Assembly: GCF_048403405.1 (NCBI RefSeq)
Contig: NZ_CP183129.1
Reading direction: 5' to 3' (one strand)
Origin: Escherichia coli
Lineage (GTDB): Bacteria > Pseudomonadota > Gammaproteobacteria > Enterobacterales > Enterobacteriaceae
Length of the DNA: 64,000 bases
Every line of letters begins with the position of its first letter. The stretch's first letter is position 1. The notes beneath the pieces are model-generated. The model was not told the DNA's origin. It ran no database searches and worked only from the letters and a program-made list of their open reading frames with translations. Position numbers and translations under genes: made by a program. Positions 51,345 through 59,083 of the stretch are shown piece by piece.

Positions 51345-52363
51345 TGAGCAAGAAAAAAGGGAAAACACCGCAACCTGCGGCAAAAAAAATGACCGCCAGC
51401 GCCCCGAAAATGGAGGCATTCACCTTTGGCGAGCCGGTGCCGGTACTCGACCGCCGTGACATTCTGGATTACGTCGAGTGCATCAGTAACGGCAGATGGT
51501 ATGAGCCGCCGGTCAGCTTTACCGGTCTGGCGAAAAGCCTGCGTGCTGCCGTGCATCACAGCTCGCCGATTTACGTCAAACGCAATATTCTGGCCTCGAC
51601 ATTTATCCCGCATCCGTGGCTTTCCCAGCAGGATTTCAGCCGCTTTGTGCTGGATTTTCTGGTGTTCGGTAATGCGTTTCTGGAAAAGCGTTACAGCACC
51701 ACCGGTAAGGTCATCAGACTGGAAACCTCACCGGCAAAATATACCCGCCGTGGCGTGGAGGAGGATGTTTACTGGTGGGTGCCGTCCTTCAACGAGCCGA
51801 CAGCCTTCGCGCCCGGCTCCGTGTTTCACCTGCTGGAGCCGGATATCAATCAGGAGCTGTACGGCCTGCCGGAATATCTCAGCGCCCTTAACTCTGCCTG
51901 GCTGAATGAGTCGGCCACGCTGTTCCGCCGCAAGTATTACGAAAACGGCGCTCATGCCGGATACATCATGTATGTCACCGATGCCGTGCAGGATCGCAAC
52001 GATATCGAAATGCTTCGCGAAAACATGGTGAAGTCGAAAGGCCGCAACAACTTTAAAAACCTGTTTCTCTATGCCCCACAGGGGAAAGCCGACGGCATTA
52101 AAATTATCCCCCTCAGTGAAGTGGCGACGAAGGACGATTTTTTTAATATCAAAAAAGTCAGCGCCGCAGATCTCCTGGACGCACACCGCATCCCCTTTCA
52201 GTTGATGGGCGGTAAGCCGGAGAATGTCGGGTCACTAGGAGATATTGAAAAAGTGGCAAAGGTCTTTGTCCGCAATGAACTCACTCCATTACAGGAGAGA
52301 ATAAAGTCAATAAATGAATGGTTAGATATGGAAGTCATAAAATCCCTTGATTATAACTTATAA
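51344..52363 (+). CDS. Q: portal protein Q
   Basis: 339-aa ORF overlapping the P stop; P2 order. Confidence 0.88.
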   Translation: MSKKKGKTPQPAAKKMTASAPKMEAFTFGEPVPVLDRRDILDYVECISNGRWYEPPVSFTGLAKSLRAAVHHSSPIYVKRNILASTFIPHPWLSQQDFSRFVLDFLVFGNAFLEKRYSTTGKVIRLETSPAKYTRRGVEEDVYWWVPSFNEPTAFAPGSVFHLLEPDINQELYGLPEYLSALNSAWLNESATLFRRKYYENGAHAGYIMYVTDAVQDRNDIEMLRENMVKSKGRNNFKNLFLYAPQGKADGIKIIPLSEVATKDDFFNIKKVSAADLLDAHRIPFQLMGGKPENVGSLGDIEKVAKVFVRNELTPLQERIKSINEWLDMEVIKSLDYNL

Positions 52364-52375
52364 GTAAATATATAA

Positions 52376-52402
52376 AGTTGGCGGAATGCAATCCCGCCAA
52401 CT
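52376..52402. terminator. bidirectional terminator hairpin between Q and the convergent RT-module
   Basis: AGTTGGCGG-(loop)-CCGCCAACT between convergent genes. Confidence 0.5.
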
Positions 52403-52405
52403 TAA

Positions 52406-53113
52406 CTATATATACTTCCTTTTTACTCTACTTAATTCTATCACTGATGAGGAGTGACAAAATGACAAATTAATAGTATCGATATAATCCAAAATTTGAC
52501 TCTCAACCTCAATAAAAATATTTTTGGGCCCATTACTAATCGATATACCGATTTCATCCAAAACAGCCATCATTTTTCTCTGATGAGTTTTATATTTATA
52601 GTCTTTATTTTCCTCTGTAATATGTGCATTGGCTTCCTCAATAACACATTTGATTCTAGATATTATTTCTAGATAATCTCTCGAAACAGATATATCACCG
52701 CCTTGCGCTTCAGGGAACATAACCCTATACCATCTAAAAAAATTAACTTTCTCTGGATAGATGCTACTTCTTTTAGTTAACTCAGCACTTGCAAATTCTC
52801 TAAACATCGTCAGATGACTAGTGTAATTACTATTATTATTATTTTTAACTCCAGCGTTATATGTCATCAAAGCAATCATAACACCAAAAACGGTAACAAA
52901 AGTTGTTATAAGCCATCCAAACGCCTGAAAATACATTACTATACCAGATGTTTTTTCCGCAAAAAATTTTAAGCACTGGCTATCGAAGCATATATCACGC
53001 TCATATAGCTTTTCATTCTGAATAGTTTCAAAAAGAGAAATTAGCGAAAAAATCAAAAAAAGAGCTGACGACACACCGACAATATATTTGAGAAGTCTAA
53101 TATTTGCATTCAT
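52406..53113 (-). CDS. 2-TM membrane protein, translationally coupled to the upstream reverse transcriptase (candidate effector)
   Basis: 235 aa; start ATG overlaps the RT stop (ATGA at 53113-53110); two N-terminal hydrophobic helices; AT-rich. Confidence 0.6.
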   Translation of the reverse strand: MNANIRLLKYIVGVSSALFLIFSLISLFETIQNEKLYERDICFDSQCLKFFAEKTSGIVMYFQAFGWLITTFVTVFGVMIALMTYNAGVKNNNNSNYTSHLTMFREFASAELTKRSSIYPEKVNFFRWYRVMFPEAQGGDISVSRDYLEIISRIKCVIEEANAHITEENKDYKYKTHQRKMMAVLDEIGISISNGPKNIFIEVESQILDYIDTINLSFCHSSSVIELSRVKRKYI

Positions 53114-54384
53114 AATGGTTTTAAAGATGCCAATCTAGATTTAAAACACTCCAGTTTTTCTTTAAATGATTCAGAGCGAGTAAGAATAATCATCTTATAT
53201 CTCGTCAAATCATATTTTCTTTTATACCAATGTTTATTTTGATTACCTTTCGAATACGACAACTCTAAACTTTTTATAGCTGCATCAATCACAGCAACAT
53301 CTCTTTTAGATGGCATCGGTTTTATTGCCTGCAACTGTTTCTTGAATGATTCATATTTTTCATGCCCAACACGGCCAAGCTTATTCACTCTCCCCATACA
53401 TCTATTGAATTCTTTTCTGTATGCAACACTTGTTTTTGTGTTATTTTTTGCCGCCAGTAATTTCAAATTATGTATAGATGCCCTGATTCTTTTGACTTCA
53501 TCGGATGGTAGTCGAGGTGAGTCATAGTCAACTCTTAAACCATGTACTTTTATAGGTTCAGATGAACAGTGAAATATTTTTGTTTTGTGCTTATTTATCG
53601 GCAAGTCATGCTCAGAAAGCATCCTCTCTATATGGCTTTGCATTTGAGAAAAATCATAATTACTTATTTTAGATGACACGGTAATATCATCTACCAAACG
53701 CGTATAAACAAGTCCTTTCCTCTGCGCACGTCTTACCACATCCCCTTCAACAGCGAATAAACACAAAGTTGCTATATAGCTTGATGTTAAGGCCCCCTGT
53801 ACGACAAAATCATCCTTAGTACATATATCCACCAAGTATTCAAGAGCCTCATCCTTAATATGCAATATCTCCTCAAACACGCTCCTAACCAGATCTCTAT
53901 GGATATTATCGAAAAAATTACTTATATCCACCTTGAGAACTGTTTTTGCTCCACAATGAGCCTTTGCACATGAAACATAGTCACGTTTGACATTAGAATT
54001 TAAAACATCATTTTTACTGGGAACTGAACCAAACAAAAATGAAGGAAAAACAACCAATTCCTTAAAAATACGTTTATTAATTCTACTCTGTAATAATCTC
54101 ATTTTAGGATGTAGGGAGTAGACAATCCGTTTGCTTCCGTCAATTTTGGGAATTTCTTTTAGAGTATATTTCTCATCTAATGATAATTCTGCAATAGCTT
54201 TAAGCTCTTCAACAGAAATCGATAAAGCCTTTGACAACTTTTCAAGTGTTGTGATAGGAGCATTGGATTTGCTGTATGGTTTAAATTTATCCATAAACAT
54301 ACCATTCAAATTCAAAGTTACGTACGGTCTTCCCATACTCAAGGGTGGAACAGCAGAGATGCTTACATCAACAATTGTCAGCAA
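53110..54384 (-). CDS. retron-type reverse transcriptase with about 100-aa C-terminal extension
   Basis: RT motifs IPKIDGSKRIVY, CAKAHCGAKTVLKVDISNFFDNI, QGALTSSYIATLCL, YTRLVDDITV (YxDD), IKVHGL. Track start is TTG 54384; in-frame ATGs at 54336, 54300, 54294. Confidence 0.75.
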   Translation of the reverse strand: MLTIVDVSISAVPPLSMGRPYVTLNLNGMFMDKFKPYSKSNAPITTLEKLSKALSISVEELKAIAELSLDEKYTLKEIPKIDGSKRIVYSLHPKMRLLQSRINKRIFKELVVFPSFLFGSVPSKNDVLNSNVKRDYVSCAKAHCGAKTVLKVDISNFFDNIHRDLVRSVFEEILHIKDEALEYLVDICTKDDFVVQGALTSSYIATLCLFAVEGDVVRRAQRKGLVYTRLVDDITVSSKISNYDFSQMQSHIERMLSEHDLPINKHKTKIFHCSSEPIKVHGLRVDYDSPRLPSDEVKRIRASIHNLKLLAAKNNTKTSVAYRKEFNRCMGRVNKLGRVGHEKYESFKKQLQAIKPMPSKRDVAVIDAAIKSLELSYSKGNQNKHWYKRKYDLTRYKMIILTRSESFKEKLECFKSRLASLKPL

Positions 54385-54625
54385 CAGCCTCTGCTATCTT
54401 TCGACCGTACGTAATGTCGTCGGCTACGGCACCATCGTAGTTGACGACGGTGGGGCCTCGCTGATAGGTCCATAGTGGACGCTTTTTTGTAAAAGCAAAA
54501 ACTGACAATTTAATGTTGTTGACTGCCGCATACCAAGCGAATCGCTGGTGCGCTAAGAATAATGCAACAAAAAAATAAGAATTTCAACCGGGTAACTGCA
54601 AGCCAGCGACATCGTTTAGCGCGCA

Positions 54626-54644
54626 GTGCTTTCCCCGCCTCGCC
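54626..54644. other. phage cos site (19-nt cohesive-end sequence)
   Basis: GTGCTTTCCCCGCCTCGCC is the reverse complement of the P2 cohesive end GGCGAGGCGGGGAAAGCAC as I recall it; located between Q and the A-side genes as in P2. Confidence 0.7.
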
Positions 54645-54805
54645 CGCCCGCTTCGTGGGGCGGTTTTAATGCAGGTGCAATACCGCTTTTGAGCCACGCC
54701 CGTCCTGGCGGACGCACGGCCGGAACATGCAACTCCGGCACATGCAAAACCATGCACATATTGCACGCAGAAAGATAAATGCCAAAATACCTAAATCAAC
54801 TTCCA

Positions 54806-56644
54806 TTAATCAGCCAGATAAGGTTCAACTTTATCTTCCCATACACTAAATAAAGGCAAACAAGTTAAATAAAAGATAAAGACACAGGCAAAAACTGAAG
54901 TTGGTTGATAACAATGATTTACAGTATACCTGCCATGAGCCATCGTGTGTCTAATTGCAGCACCACCTTTCATATTGAACAATAAATCCATAGTCAATAC
55001 ATGATCACTATCAAAAACACCTTCCATTTCACTCCTATAATTTGCAAGCATTTGAGATAGGCTAGTAGCCTCCTCAAAAAGCGACACATCTATTTTCGTT
55101 GTTTCTTTTCTTCTTAATTCTAAAATCCATCTAATTGAATTCTCCAATTGCGGCAATAACAAATAACAGGCAGACACATAATCTCCCTGCCAAAGCTTAT
55201 AAAACCCCAAAGAAAATATTTCTGCATACCCAGGTGGAACAAATGCACTTTGTTGTGAGATTGGGTCAAATGTATTTTCATTTAATGAATACCTAGCCAA
55301 CACACTTTGCCTAACGACTTCAAACTCACCACAAACATAGACCTGATGCTCAATGTTACTAGTTCTTAAATAATTTGCACAAGCATCATTTAAACTTATA
55401 TCCCCCGCAGGATCCAAAGGTGAACGACTTGCTACAACGCGCCCTCTATCATCATAAACAACCGTTTCACTCATATTAAGAAAAAAATGTTTTTTAGCAT
55501 CGGAACGAGCTCTTTCCATAATTTCACTGGCACTTACAATCTTAAATCTAGCAATTAAAGTTTTAATTACCCTTGAGAAATCCAATTGATTATAAACATG
55601 CTCTTTCTGAGCGATAACATCACTAAGATCCATTGGTATTGCAAAGAAGTGCATTTCATCATTGATTTGATCTCGAATAGAATTCAATTCCTCTCTAATC
55701 TTTTTAATTTCTTCATTCATTCCACCAATTGCTCTAAATTCGCCAAGAGCAACTCTTAACCAATGAGCCTTCAATATTGAAGATGAAGACTGTTCAAATT
55801 GAGCCAATGTTATTTCTGACGCTTTAATTCTGCACCGTCTTCCTTGCTCTTCCATATCGTTTTTAACATATAATTCAGACGCAAAATAAAACAATTTTTT
55901 CACTGCATCAAAATAAGACGCTCCACAATGCTCATCAGCTATCTTTTCTGCATTCTCAGCCAATTGCAAGGGACACAATAAATTATTCTTATAAAGAATT
56001 TCAGAAACTCTTAATACACCGGTGAATATACCAGAGTCTATTAATACATGATATAACCTTAATGTCGAATCAACTATCCCCCCTTGTAGTTGTTTTTTCC
56101 TGCCAATAAGCATGCGCGATATTGCGATACCTCTATCCAAGCAGTCAACAACATCAAAAATATGGATATCACCTGACTCTTGTTTTTCTATTAAAGTATC
56201 GCAAGCATCATTAACCATTAGAGAATATGACTCTATTGCTTTATTGGCAGAGTCTATATCCTTACGGTTATTTATCCATAAAACATCACACACCCTAGAT
56301 ATAATATAAGGATTATCGGAGTTTTCTTTAATACAAGTTAATATTGTTGAAAAACTCTCCTTATAATCTGAAGGCCTATAGCCCCTCTCAGGATAGAGAA
56401 TGATTTTTGGCTCAAAACCGATAATATCACCAGACCTAGAAAATTTAAAATTAAACAACGCACGTAATAAATAGCAAAGCCGCCAAGAACTTACATCGTT
56501 TTTTAGCTTGTAAGATGACAACAACTGAACAAAATAAGACTCCATATCAAAATGAGAATAACTTCTTGGCGATGATAATATACTGGCGTATTCACTTTTT
56601 TTAAAATCATCAACTGAAATAGAAAAAACATCAAACTCGCTCAT
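54806..56644 (-). CDS. large accessory protein of unknown function (612 aa) at the P2 tin/old position
   Basis: ATG 56644 with strong SD AGGTGAGGA; no Walker A or other recognised motif except a possible Rx4H (IRHTMAHGRY) near the C-terminus; AT-rich. Confidence 0.6.
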   Translation of the reverse strand: MSEFDVFSISVDDFKKSEYASILSSPRSYSHFDMESYFVQLLSSYKLKNDVSSWRLCYLLRALFNFKFSRSGDIIGFEPKIILYPERGYRPSDYKESFSTILTCIKENSDNPYIISRVCDVLWINNRKDIDSANKAIESYSLMVNDACDTLIEKQESGDIHIFDVVDCLDRGIAISRMLIGRKKQLQGGIVDSTLRLYHVLIDSGIFTGVLRVSEILYKNNLLCPLQLAENAEKIADEHCGASYFDAVKKLFYFASELYVKNDMEEQGRRCRIKASEITLAQFEQSSSSILKAHWLRVALGEFRAIGGMNEEIKKIREELNSIRDQINDEMHFFAIPMDLSDVIAQKEHVYNQLDFSRVIKTLIARFKIVSASEIMERARSDAKKHFFLNMSETVVYDDRGRVVASRSPLDPAGDISLNDACANYLRTSNIEHQVYVCGEFEVVRQSVLARYSLNENTFDPISQQSAFVPPGYAEIFSLGFYKLWQGDYVSACYLLLPQLENSIRWILELRRKETTKIDVSLFEEATSLSQMLANYRSEMEGVFDSDHVLTMDLLFNMKGGAAIRHTMAHGRYTVNHCYQPTSVFACVFIFYLTCLPLFSVWEDKVEPYLAD

Positions 56645-56798
56645 TCCTCACCTTTAAAGCACTTAACAAACAATCATGGTAAACAATACCAAACTGCAAG
56701 CAACGATTAAATACAGAAAACTCTTTCTGTCGAGATTTTTCAATAACACTAAATATATACAGTACGAAATTATCTAATATTGCGTGAATTTTTGCCAT
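56631..56798 (-). CDS. small hypothetical protein (55 aa) coupling gene A to the 612-aa gene
   Basis: ATG 56798-56796 overlaps the A stop (TAATG); its 3' end overlaps the 612-aa gene start by 14 nt. Confidence 0.35.
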   Translation of the reverse strand: MAKIHAILDNFVLYIFSVIEKSRQKEFSVFNRCLQFGIVYHDCLLSALKVRNERV

Positions 56799-59083
56799 TA
56801 TGTCCACTCCATTACTGTTGAGAATCCCGGCCACTCATCAATGACCGGATACGTGAATTTTTTCCCGCCATAATTTATGGTCGCTCCCCGAGCCAGCGCC
56901 TCAAGCTCCCATCGCTGTGGCCTGATACCGTTCTGAGCAAGGTCAACGCGGATACGGGTAATTTGCATTCGTTCCGACCGGGTCAGTCTGGCCGATGGCG
57001 CTATTTCATGCGGTTTTAACGGGCTTCCGTTTCTTTGCTGACGGTTTGGTCTTCTCAGACCGTGTTTTAATGCACCTCTGAGCGCCCTCACGACCTCCTG
57101 GTCATTCCATTCGATAACACCGTCATCTACCAGATTAAGCACTGCTACGGCGTGTTCAGAAGGCGTGGGAGCCGGTGACGAAGTATCACCACCGGTGAGC
57201 TTTCCACAGTTATTGACAGGACTCCGAGGCGCGGCGATGCCGCTTTTTAAAGTCAACGGCTCAACGACCGGAACTTTCGGCACAATGCGCCAGTCCGTCG
57301 TTCTGGTGATATGAATATGACGCGTGCCGAGATGCGGCGCGTAAATGCCGACCACTCTCTCGACTTCTTCCTCGTACTCGTTAACGTCATCCGACGGGCT
57401 ACGGGCGACCCTGACAGTCTGACAATCGCGCGGGACATTTGCCCCGCCCTGCGCGCTGATATACAACGCAAAATCACCACTGTCTGCGGCGGCGCGTGCA
57501 GCCTCGACGCGTTCGTCAAACTCATCAGCAATGCTGACGCCGCGAGGCAATTTGCGTAGTTCACGGTAAGCCCCCATTGTCGGCAGGCCAACCGTTTTAA
57601 ATTGCGGGATACGCCACGTTGACGCCCATGCGGTAACAGCCGCTGCAGTGTCTTTCAGCGGCCTGCCGGTATCGTTATCGAGCTGACCATCCAGTGCATA
57701 GCCGTCGATATTTTTTGAGATGTATTTCGCGATATATCCCGCAGCACCGCCCCGGTTAAGGTGTTTCGCCTGAAAACGGTTTCGCGCGGCTCCTCTTTCG
57801 TCGCCATCCTCTTTGAGCGCATAGCGACGCATGATTTCGATAATCTGGTTACGCTGGCGTGGATTACAAAAAAGCATCATATGCCAGTGCGGCGTTCCGT
57901 CGTGGTGTGGCTCGACGACTCGCAAACCGTAGACCTGTAAATCATTATCCTTGAATGCCGTGCGCATCAGGCTCCAGATACGGCAGAGATAACGCTGCGC
58001 ATCCTTCGGATTAAATGCCTCATCATTCCAGCCGTGATTAAGCTGCACGGTTTTACTTTCTCCTTTTCCGACCTGACGTGTCGGGTGATACTTTGACGGC
58101 GCGGTCAGCGTGATAAACATCCCCACATCACCCTCTGCGGCGGCGTAACGCTCAATACCGGCGATGGTGTTCATCAGCTCCATCCGGCGAATTTCAGGAT
58201 TAGAAATACTGCCCATCACCTTACTGATAAGGTCGATGCGCTCGCCGGTTTCCCTGTTTTCGAGGTCACACGATTTAAGAAATTCCAGATTTGCCTGGCG
58301 GCGTGCACGCACATCACGAATGGCGTGTTTACTGGCATAAGGAGAACGATCTTTATTGACCTCCCCGACAGCAATCAGTAACGCCTCATGCCAGCGCATA
58401 CGCTGGCCTTTAAGCTGATGAGTCCACCACTCATCGTTAAACAGGCGGGCAATGGCAGAATATGCCTGCCTCGTGGTCATCTGTCCTTTACGGTATTTTT
58501 TCCAGTAGAGCGGGGAAATATTGAAAGCACGTGCAGCGCCAGCAACATGACTATACAGGTGAGCCTGCGCCTCATCCGTAAACAGCGATTCTTTTTCGCC
58601 ATGCGCATCCACCCAGGCATCGCTGAGTTCCTCATACATCATGAAAAGCTGCGATGAGATACGGGCGGCAAACTTTTTCAGCTCCTTGTCATTCATTCCA
58701 GGCAGGCGCGCATAGTGGTCACGCTCTGCCAGAAACAGCAACGACGCGTCGGTGTTCATTTCATGGCGCTGATTCACGCGCTCAATGCGCGGCCATAAAC
58801 GACGCTGAAAAGTGGATGTGAGGAAATAAAACCCGTGTACCGGGCTTTTATTGCGCCGGATGTAGTCATAGCGTGAAGTAAACAGCGAGCGCAAAAAGTA
58901 AGGCAGGCGGTTAATCGTGGATAAAACCCCTTGCACCTGACGCATCTCGTCACGTGTAAGGGGTCTTTCGCGCCCGACGGCCTCGCGTGGCGCGTTCCAT
59001 GCATAAGCACCGGTAAACGTCTTACCGGTGCCTGCGGCAAATGCTGACGGAGGGACAAAACGCCCGGAGGCTTTAACGGCCAT
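56798..59083 (-). CDS. A: replication initiation protein A (rolling-circle nickase)
   Basis: ORF 56798..59125; start placed at ATG 59083 (MAVKASGRFVPP...), 761 aa; catalytic region YIAKYISKNIDGYALDG. Confidence 0.9.
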   Translation of the reverse strand: MAVKASGRFVPPSAFAAGTGKTFTGAYAWNAPREAVGRERPLTRDEMRQVQGVLSTINRLPYFLRSLFTSRYDYIRRNKSPVHGFYFLTSTFQRRLWPRIERVNQRHEMNTDASLLFLAERDHYARLPGMNDKELKKFAARISSQLFMMYEELSDAWVDAHGEKESLFTDEAQAHLYSHVAGAARAFNISPLYWKKYRKGQMTTRQAYSAIARLFNDEWWTHQLKGQRMRWHEALLIAVGEVNKDRSPYASKHAIRDVRARRQANLEFLKSCDLENRETGERIDLISKVMGSISNPEIRRMELMNTIAGIERYAAAEGDVGMFITLTAPSKYHPTRQVGKGESKTVQLNHGWNDEAFNPKDAQRYLCRIWSLMRTAFKDNDLQVYGLRVVEPHHDGTPHWHMMLFCNPRQRNQIIEIMRRYALKEDGDERGAARNRFQAKHLNRGGAAGYIAKYISKNIDGYALDGQLDNDTGRPLKDTAAAVTAWASTWRIPQFKTVGLPTMGAYRELRKLPRGVSIADEFDERVEAARAAADSGDFALYISAQGGANVPRDCQTVRVARSPSDDVNEYEEEVERVVGIYAPHLGTRHIHITRTTDWRIVPKVPVVEPLTLKSGIAAPRSPVNNCGKLTGGDTSSPAPTPSEHAVAVLNLVDDGVIEWNDQEVVRALRGALKHGLRRPNRQQRNGSPLKPHEIAPSARLTRSERMQITRIRVDLAQNGIRPQRWELEALARGATINYGGKKFTYPVIDEWPGFSTVMEWT

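Follow-up and report, generated by a model that had tools for sequence, protein, structure and literature searches.

The window analysed here, a 64,000-nucleotide stretch of Escherichia coli DNA, contains at 54385-54625 a leader that lies between a phage cos site and a reverse transcriptase (RT) gene, and in which several hairpins can be drawn. A sequence-only reading had proposed that this leader encodes the msr/msd RNA of a retron. The locus raises the questions of whether this is so, which retron is present, how far its RNA extends and how DNA synthesis is primed on it.

Identity of the retron and its prophage setting

The RT gene lies on the minus strand in an open reading frame at 53110-54384, with an ATG at 54336 and an annotated extent of 53110-54336. 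Its product matches the PADLOC profile RT_IV over residues 20-407 (9.3e-177) and Pfam RVT_1 (2.5e-31), and is identical to the 'Ec48-RT' published in the supplement of Doman et al. (2023) along the entire 399-residue sequence given there. The protein contains the motif YVDD, and its catalytic DD falls at residues 216/217 of the long form, the same residues as were changed in the Ec48 catalytic mutant D216A/D217A of Millman et al. The sequence identity, together with the positions of the catalytic residues, therefore indicates that the locus is retron Ec48 (Retron-Eco6) itself. Other defence RTs were excluded by score, the NCBIfam models for Drt2, Drt3a, AbiA and Drt4 giving 34.7, 39.8, 24.1 and 16.7 bits against cut-offs of 390, 200, 250 and 450 respectively. 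The gene at 52406-53113 (minus strand), whose start overlaps the RT stop by 4 nt, encodes the two-transmembrane effector of the Ec48 family (PADLOC 2TM_IV, 4.1e-85; NCBIfam retron_Ec48_2TM, 226.7 bits against a cut-off of 65).

The published ncRNA (msr-msd) of Retron-Eco6 (Khan et al. 2024, supplement, PMC10849725) aligned to the minus strand at 54573-54388 with 184 of its 186 bases matching, and the two mismatching bases look like errors in machine reading of the PDF. Three features of type IV retrons were found: an RT of clade 3/type IV, a two-transmembrane effector overlapping the RT stop, and a structured ncRNA adjacent on the same strand. We regard it as nearly certain that what lies at 54385-54625 is the msr-msd gene of a type IV retron, Ec48 (Retron-Eco6), transcribed from the minus strand and carried as P2-like prophage cargo in the cos-proximal variable locus. 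As both leader and RT match Ec48, the proposal of a retron ncRNA ahead of the RT gene was right, borne out by the RT, the effector and the mapping of the published Eco6 ncRNA and RT-DNA, and the element is not new. It is already characterised, and analysis of the leader re-identifies it: RT, effector family, ncRNA and RT-DNA are all the same as those of Retron-Eco6 (Mao et al. 1997; Millman et al. 2020; Mestre et al. 2020). There is no substantive difference. From comparison, neither the RT start as annotated (MGRPYV...) nor the annotated ends of the ncRNA seem to be natural. An Rfam scan of 52000-57000, at E values up to 10, gave four chance-level hits only (E 1.6-8.4), all of them to eukaryotic miRNA or snoRNA models.

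The P2-type cos 19-mer, GGCGAGGCGGGGAAAGCAC, is located on the minus strand at 54644-54626, and position 54625, which had been taken as the cos boundary, is thus truly that boundary; the P2 backbone begins at about 54618. The hairpins lie 10-230 bp from this 19-mer, and P2 cos function is known to depend on flanking sequence (Ziermann and Calendar 1990). The sequence-only reading had itself raised the alternative that they are recognition or bending elements for the P2 terminase and do not belong to a retron RNA. P2 homology, however, stops at 54618: the whole leader is found in 56 complete E. coli genomes of the 2,136 that match, the further genomes (about 2,080 of the 2,136) match only the 43 cos-side bases, and the records of P2-family phages match only from 54618 upward. 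From 54587 downward, moreover, the leader recurs with compensatory changes beside type IV RTs outside P2 prophages, at a chromosomal locus of Enterobacter asburiae, in integrase islands, and in Pseudomonas and Marinobacter. The part specific to the P2 junction comprises only the 30-40 bases between cos and the -35 box (54588-54625), which show no conservation in relatives. With the hairpins recurring together with the RT elsewhere, the packaging explanation fails, and we consider it very improbable.

Peduovirus pro147 carries identical cargo between its portal gene and cos, and the same cargo is present on seven IMG/VR contigs. In P2-like phages the cos-proximal locus is known as a hotspot, with retrons among the systems found there, and Ec86 (Retron-Eco1) and Ec67 (Retron-Eco2) sit at the equivalent site of P2/186-like prophages. 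Like Ec48, both are cargo between the phage cohesive end and a DNA-packaging gene, and they resemble it in the overall order msr-msd-RT and in having a priming G within (T)AGC, but they belong to other RT clades and have other effectors. Close type IV retrons with 57-77% RT identity (L080 of Enterobacter asburiae, L083, L085 and L086) occupy other contexts, namely a chromosomal site between chemoreceptor and sigma-70 genes, sites beside phage-type integrases, and sites beside Ogr/Delta and primase genes (P4-like). This variety of contexts indicates that RT, ncRNA and effector move between mobile elements as a unit, promoter included.

Several other features surround the leader. Across cos, between it and a gpA-like replication gene, the minus strand carries a 612-aa ORF (54806-56644) that matches the PADLOC candidate defence family PDC-S39 (2e-68) and no NCBIfam model; it looks like a second cargo of the same cos-proximal hotspot. 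A terminator-like hairpin with a T-run follows this gene at 54751-54767 (minus strand), which argues against read-through into the retron from upstream. On the plus strand, a GC-rich terminator-like hairpin at 54644-54663 abuts the high-coordinate end of the cos 19-mer, sharing one base with it. Two ORFs run antisense over the leader, one of 114 aa in the window (54131-54475, plus strand) and one annotated in pro147 as the 'hypothetical protein' ORF32 (L096, 3560-3676); they are most likely spurious calls over the ncRNA gene.

Conserved helices and the msDNA

The hairpins described in the leader were all located again in the sequence. The 13-bp stem-loop is present as an inverted repeat of 13 nt, GTCGTCGGCTACG / CGTAGTTGACGAC, at 54416-54428 / 54436-54448, with 85% complementarity and a 7-nt loop; its true start is 54416, one base from the 54417 first given. 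The second hairpin, GCTTTT-ttgt-AAAAGC, was found at 54481-54496, and the palindrome noted around 54533-54548 corresponds to the minus-strand hairpin ACCAGCG-att-CGCtTGGT at 54532-54549. The folding energy of the 289-nt leader gave a z of only -1.54, with 14 of 200 shuffles folding at least as well, and single-sequence folding was therefore dropped as evidence in favour of covariation. The hairpins are held to be real on account of covariation in related loci and of identity with a published, experimentally studied ncRNA.

The comparison covered 35 type IV loci taken from species-representative genomes, with RTs 40-55% identical, together with six closer assembly loci (RT 57-77%) and two viral-contig variants. 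Three msr stem-loops on the minus strand were identified by covariation in nine close variants. In SL1, ACCAGCG-att-CGCtTGGT (54549-54532), 95% of cells are paired and 4 of 7 pairs have changed on both sides; its position is kept in about 40 loci. The corresponding figures are 87% and 3 of 6 pairs for SL2, GCUUUU-ACAA-AAAAGC (54496-54481), and 91% and 2 of 5 pairs for SL3, GUCCA-CUA-UGGAC (54480-54468). SL1 and SL2, the palindrome and the second hairpin of the earlier reading, show covariation in about 40 related loci.

A long-range closing helix was identified from duplex energies and compensation. Its 5′ strand (a2-like; 54531-54502, minus strand) comprises AUGC (54531-54528), UCAACA (54522-54517) and AUUGUCAG (54509-54502), and ends in G in most relatives. 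The 3′ strand (a1-like; 54381-54359, minus strand) comprises CUGACAAU (54381-54374), UGUUGA (54373-54368) and GCAU (54362-54359). Cognate strands form duplexes with a mean of -23.8 kcal/mol, as against -14.0 (sd 4.5) for non-cognate strands, and the cognate partner ranks between first and fifth among 32 loci. Compensation is seen in pairs such as UUGUCAG/CUGACAA, UCGUCAG/CUGACGA, UUGCCAG/CUGGCAA and UUGUUAG/CUAACAA. The sequence-only reading had found no a1/a2 repeats; a covarying helix of this kind does exist, with its 3′ strand just outside the stretch then considered.

There is also a conserved 3′ domain (54414-54318, minus strand), which was delimited with a covariance model, R1, built from eight close sequences. 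R1 matched 32 type IV loci, along with two weak spurious hits. The domain consists of three covarying elements on the minus strand: helix P6, formed by UUACGUACGGUC (54414-54403) and GACCGUACGUAA (54329-54318); helix P5, formed by AUAGCAGAG (54397-54389) and CUCUGCUGU (54358-54350); and hairpin P7, CCC-UUGAGUAU-GGG (54345-54332). In an alignment of the 32 loci that was itself fitted to R1, 95.7% of cells are paired, compared with 67% in shuffles and about 40% with slid partners, and 23 of the 24 pairs change on both sides. The first eight bases of the domain double as msd template. P5 and P6 each cross the closing helix, the 3′ strand of which is contained in the loop of P5, and the two sets of helices must therefore form either a pseudoknot or a switch. 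The region 54385-54625 is indeed non-coding in the sense in which the earlier reading had called it so; the conserved RNA, however, continues below 54385 to about 54318.

The 3′ domain bears on the start of the RT. Homologues of the RT are mostly 394-396 aa in length, the RefSeq annotation of the pro147 RT is 396 aa, and the RT_IV profile match starts at residue 20. Annotated codons 1-7 (MGRPYVT) coincide with P7 and the 3′ strand of P6, and the 'ATG' within the UAUGGG motif belongs, in distant relatives, to a helix in which it covaries (CUC/GAG, UCC/GGA). From homologue lengths, the pro147 annotation, the profile start and the overlap of codons with the covarying P7/P6, the natural start is probably the ATG at 54300 or 54294 (M13 or M15 of the long form). 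The published N-terminus of the Ec48 RT, MGRPYVTLNLNGMF (54294-54336, minus strand), overlaps P7/P6, and relatives, with the RefSeq entry for pro147, start at the equivalent of M13/M15. The first 12-14 residues in engineered Ec48 RT constructs may thus not belong to the natural protein.

The sequenced Eco6 RT-DNA in the supplement of Khan et al. (PMC10849725) begins GTACGTAATGTCG..., which corresponds to the plus strand from 54407. The Eco1 RT-DNA in the same table is the 85-base molecule reported by sequencing (Palka et al.; Khan et al.), and the Eco6 5′ end was therefore taken as empirical. The length of msDNA-Ec48, 48 nt, is known from the name of the retron and from the literature, Palka et al. 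having found a 3′ end three bases shorter (45). A start at 54407 combined with a length of 48 nt places the msDNA most likely at 54407-54454, with the plus-strand sequence GTACGTAATGTCGTCGGCTACGGCACCATCGTAGTTGACGACGGTGGG, and the msd that templates it at 54454-54407 on the minus strand, the 3′ end being deduced from the reported length. An msDNA of about 48 (45) nt has been reported for the same sequence both on gels and by sequencing. Full-text literature searches with msd sequence strings returned no match.

The minimum-energy DNA fold of this 48-mer (-11.1 kcal/mol) is the 13-bp hairpin, flanked by a 5′ tail of 9 nt and a 3′ tail of 6 nt; the hairpin at 54416-54448, with its template on the minus strand, is interpreted as the msDNA stem-loop. 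In the window and five relatives, 12-13 of the 13 positions pair as DNA as against 8-11 as RNA, the substitutions being transitions that give A-C mismatches in RNA and G-T wobbles in DNA. The stem is kept in relatives mainly at the DNA level, a pattern that fits a stem that matters in the msDNA. The 13-bp repeat overlaps an alternative RNA hairpin, SL4, CACCGUCGU-CAACU-ACGAUGGUG (54452-54430, minus strand), which is comparably kept as RNA, with 8-9 of 9 pairs in most variants. Two groups (Kong 2021; Khan et al., PMC10849725) have used the SL4 loop for insertion of editing donors: the Ec48 ncRNA primers of Kong 2021 match 54463 downward (minus strand) and 54419-54441, and the Khan donor positions 130;136 correspond to 54444/54438. 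Just 3′ of the msd loop, a block CCGUAGCC(G)ACG(A)C (54423-54429) is nearly invariant in loci L080-L086, L001 and L088, and its pairing partner varies; one-sided conservation of this CCGUAGCC block might reflect an RT contact or a function of the msDNA.

Promoter, priming geometry and extent of the RNA

Promoter scanning of 54200-54850 gave a single promoter-like site, a sigma-70-type promoter on the minus strand (54587-54559) with the -35 box TTGAAA (54587-54582), a 17-nt spacer and the -10 box CATTAT (54564-54559). Conservation with seven close relatives starts exactly at the -35 box, and distant relatives have a -10-like box at the same position. The predicted transcription start lies at about 54551-54554.

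The candidate priming (branching) guanosine lies close to this predicted start, at 54553-54551 on the minus strand. A review (PMC6868368) places retron priming Gs in the context TAGC, apart from a list of exceptions that does not include Ec48, and counts Ec48 among the retrons with a priming G. The sequence TTAGC (54556-54552) contains the only TAGC upstream of the msd, which makes G54553 one candidate. The other is G54551, the G of the GC dinucleotide directly 5′ of SL1 (window context TTAGCGC). Of the 12 relatives shown in the alignment, 10 have a G at this position, the 5′ ends of L085 and L086 being poorly aligned. From context and alignment, either G54553 or G54551 is thus a candidate priming G.

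The path from this guanosine to the start of the RT-DNA departs from the canonical retron picture. In Ec86, a long and clear a1/a2 duplex abuts both the priming G and the template start; such a duplex is not evident in Ec48. The a2/a1 pair that would follow from the ends of the published ncRNA (54573-54555 with 54406-54388) has an energy of -6.3 kcal/mol, weaker than the shuffle mean of -9.7, and shows no preference for the cognate partner among 42 loci (-7.5 versus -7.6); its a2 arm lies in the promoter spacer. It was rejected as no better than shuffles and not conserved. The closing helix, for its part, ends at 54382, 25 nt from the RT-DNA start at 54407, and 54407 itself lies inside P6. It is these two features that set the geometry apart from the canonical one.

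A 12-nt inverted repeat, ATGTCGCTGGCT (54612-54601) / AGCCGACGACAT (54425-54414), offers a different solution, in which these arms are the true a2/a1 and the msDNA starts at 54426 ('Model A'). This is the longest long-range repeat in the leader; its duplex, at -19 kcal/mol, is matched by only 1.8% of shuffles, and an unconstrained fold of 54612-54414 closes on it. The 5′ arm, however, lies upstream of the conserved promoter, in the only part of the leader that is not conserved; in close relatives whose 3′ arm is identical, nothing complementary to it lies upstream; and the first base is 54573 in the published ncRNA and 54407, not 54426, in the sequenced RT-DNA. Attractive as it is within the window, this pairing is missing in relatives and contradicted by published sequences, and we give it very little credence. 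The repeat joins the cos-proximal junction to the conserved msd block CCGUAGCCGACGAC in the P2-borne copy only, and is either a chance or a junction-specific feature.

Other solutions were also rejected. An msDNA running from the closing helix to the base of SL4 (54382-54429, 'Model B') would be exactly 48 nt long; we regard this as a coincidence of length, because the sequenced RT-DNA starts at 54407 and both donor designs place the msd further upstream. Self-priming from the 3′ strand of a cleaved P6 fits the 5′ end of the RT-DNA only, and conflicts with the counting of Ec48 among the branched msDNAs. Among the local pairings tried, no conserved pairing was found that brings G54551/G54553 to C54407: a 2-bp GC/GG contact, a bulged CGCACC/GGUCG pairing and a CGAC/GUCG mini-hairpin with opposing Gs were too short, unconserved or topologically impossible. 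Two readings of the priming remain. Either the G is positioned through tertiary organisation by the RT, or priming takes place at the closing helix and yields a longer primary RT-DNA, which is subsequently trimmed. Priming also departs from the canonical scheme in Retron-Sen1 (Se72, type V), which like Ec48 has an RT of clade 3 and is triggered by Gam. Retron-Sen1 differs in having a cold-shock-like effector, no observed 2′-5′ branch and no apparent priming G, whereas Ec48 is counted as having one.

The second of these readings is connected with the extent of the RNA. The functional RNA may be longer than published, running for about 235 nt (about 54553-54318) with the P5/P6/P7 domain pairing with part of the msd template, and may tie reverse transcription, or else the condition of the msDNA 5′ end, to how the RT-effector message is processed or translated; we give this a fairly low probability. 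In one version, the primary RT-DNA starts at 54382 and is 73 nt long, and the first 25 nt are normally removed to leave the 48-mer. Strong covariation of P5, P6 and P7 is seen in 32 loci, and these elements cross a closing helix that is equally well supported, although their pairs were counted in an alignment that had itself been fitted to the covariance model. P6 includes the first eight template bases, and the 25-nt interval from the closing helix to the RT-DNA start is taken up by P5 and P6 together. The published ncRNA end at 54388 severs P5 from its partner and leaves out the 3′ strand of the closing helix, and for another type IV retron in the supplement of Khan et al. (PMC10849725) the predicted ncRNA extends through the equivalent 3′ region.

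The closest analogue is the 'hybrid RNA' riboregulator of the sister type VI retrons. The msDNA of Retron-Vpa2 has a 23-nt 5′ segment that is seen only under inhibition of RecBCD, and it derepresses translation (bioRxiv 10.1101/2025.10.22.683967); Ec48 is likewise triggered by inhibition of RecBCD. The Vpa2 'hybrid RNA' (Zhang et al., bioRxiv 10.1101/2025.10.22.683967) belongs with an RT of the same clade 3 as Ec48, continues as structured RNA 3′ of the msr-msd with inverted repeats that wrap back on the first arm, as in Ec48, and is linked to RecBCD and Red triggers, the 23-nt 5′ segment of its msDNA behaving separately. The type VI system differs in encoding a small toxic peptide inside the RNA, in having an HTH protein and in making almost no resting msDNA, whereas Ec48 has abundant msDNA, a separate two-transmembrane effector and no evident small ORF of the type VI kind.

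Other observations count against such coupling. P6 ends 18-24 nt before the likely RT start, and the ribosome binding site is therefore not obviously hidden. Removal of the 2′-5′ linked form has not been reported for Eco6, unlike Eco4 and Eco9 (Palka et al.), which argues against trimming at the 5′ end. A conserved direct repeat of the type VI kind was not found in a check by eye. The full proposal, which goes beyond the longer RNA as such, is that natural Ec48 RNA is a pseudoknotted or switching molecule of about 235 nt (about 54553-54318) in place of the 186-nt ncRNA, that its P5/P6/P7 domain pairs with the 3′-most portion of the template, and that synthesis or RecBCD-dependent trimming of a 25-nt 5′ msDNA segment would refold it and so alter processing or translation of the RT-effector message. 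We consider this unlikely as a whole, and less probable than the longer RNA.

Proposed mechanism and significance

The identity of the locus, its coordinates, the promoter candidate and the conservation of the helices were computed here; production of the msDNA, its length and its 5′ end, and the function in defence, are taken from the literature. Transcription would most likely proceed from the retron's own promoter (54587-54559), starting at about 54552. The RNA is predicted to fold into the msr hairpins SL1, SL2 and SL3 and the long-range closing helix (54531-54502/54381-54359), with the msd segment at 54454-54407. The Ec48 RT, encoded directly downstream, would prime on the candidate msr guanosine (G54553 or G54551) and copy the msd into a single-stranded DNA of 45-48 nt, whose stem-loop would be the 13-bp hairpin, and host RNase H would trim the template. 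Published work on this same sequence has the RT copying the msd into msDNA, with the 3′ end of the product shaped by RNase H1 (Palka et al.). In published experiments, RT, msDNA and the two-transmembrane effector form an abortive-infection system, which fires when RecBCD is inhibited by the phage proteins lambda Gam or T7 gp5.9, or on loss of RecB, and leads to cell death; defence needs RT activity and the transmembrane helices of the effector (Millman et al.). To these steps, a regulatory role of the 3′ domain (54414-54318) may be added by inference.

The 'guardian of RecBCD' logic of defence was first shown with Ec48, from whose RT the compact prime editor PE6a is derived. What comparison of the loci adds to the published annotation is a conserved promoter, an invariant G beside SL1, a covarying closing helix and a covarying 3′ domain. 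The residual interest of the locus is modest, and lies in this RNA architecture, conserved outside the bounds of the published ncRNA, and in a priming geometry that departs from the canonical scheme. Engineering constructs use an ncRNA that is not the RNA conserved in about 40 type IV retrons: the conserved RNA has a different 5′ start, a closing-helix 3′ strand that the constructs omit, and a 3′ domain that extends over the annotated first RT codons; this mismatch could bear on the modest editing by Eco6 in bacteria, 0.2x that of Eco1 in the census of Khan et al. (PMC10849725). If the proposal of a switching RNA of about 235 nt is true, this RNA would stand to type IV as the 'hybrid RNA' riboregulator stands to type VI, and would physically link inhibition of RecBCD to activation of the retron. 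With a structural connection from the 5′ region of the msDNA to the RNA downstream, the sensing of RecBCD status by Ec48 would become testable.
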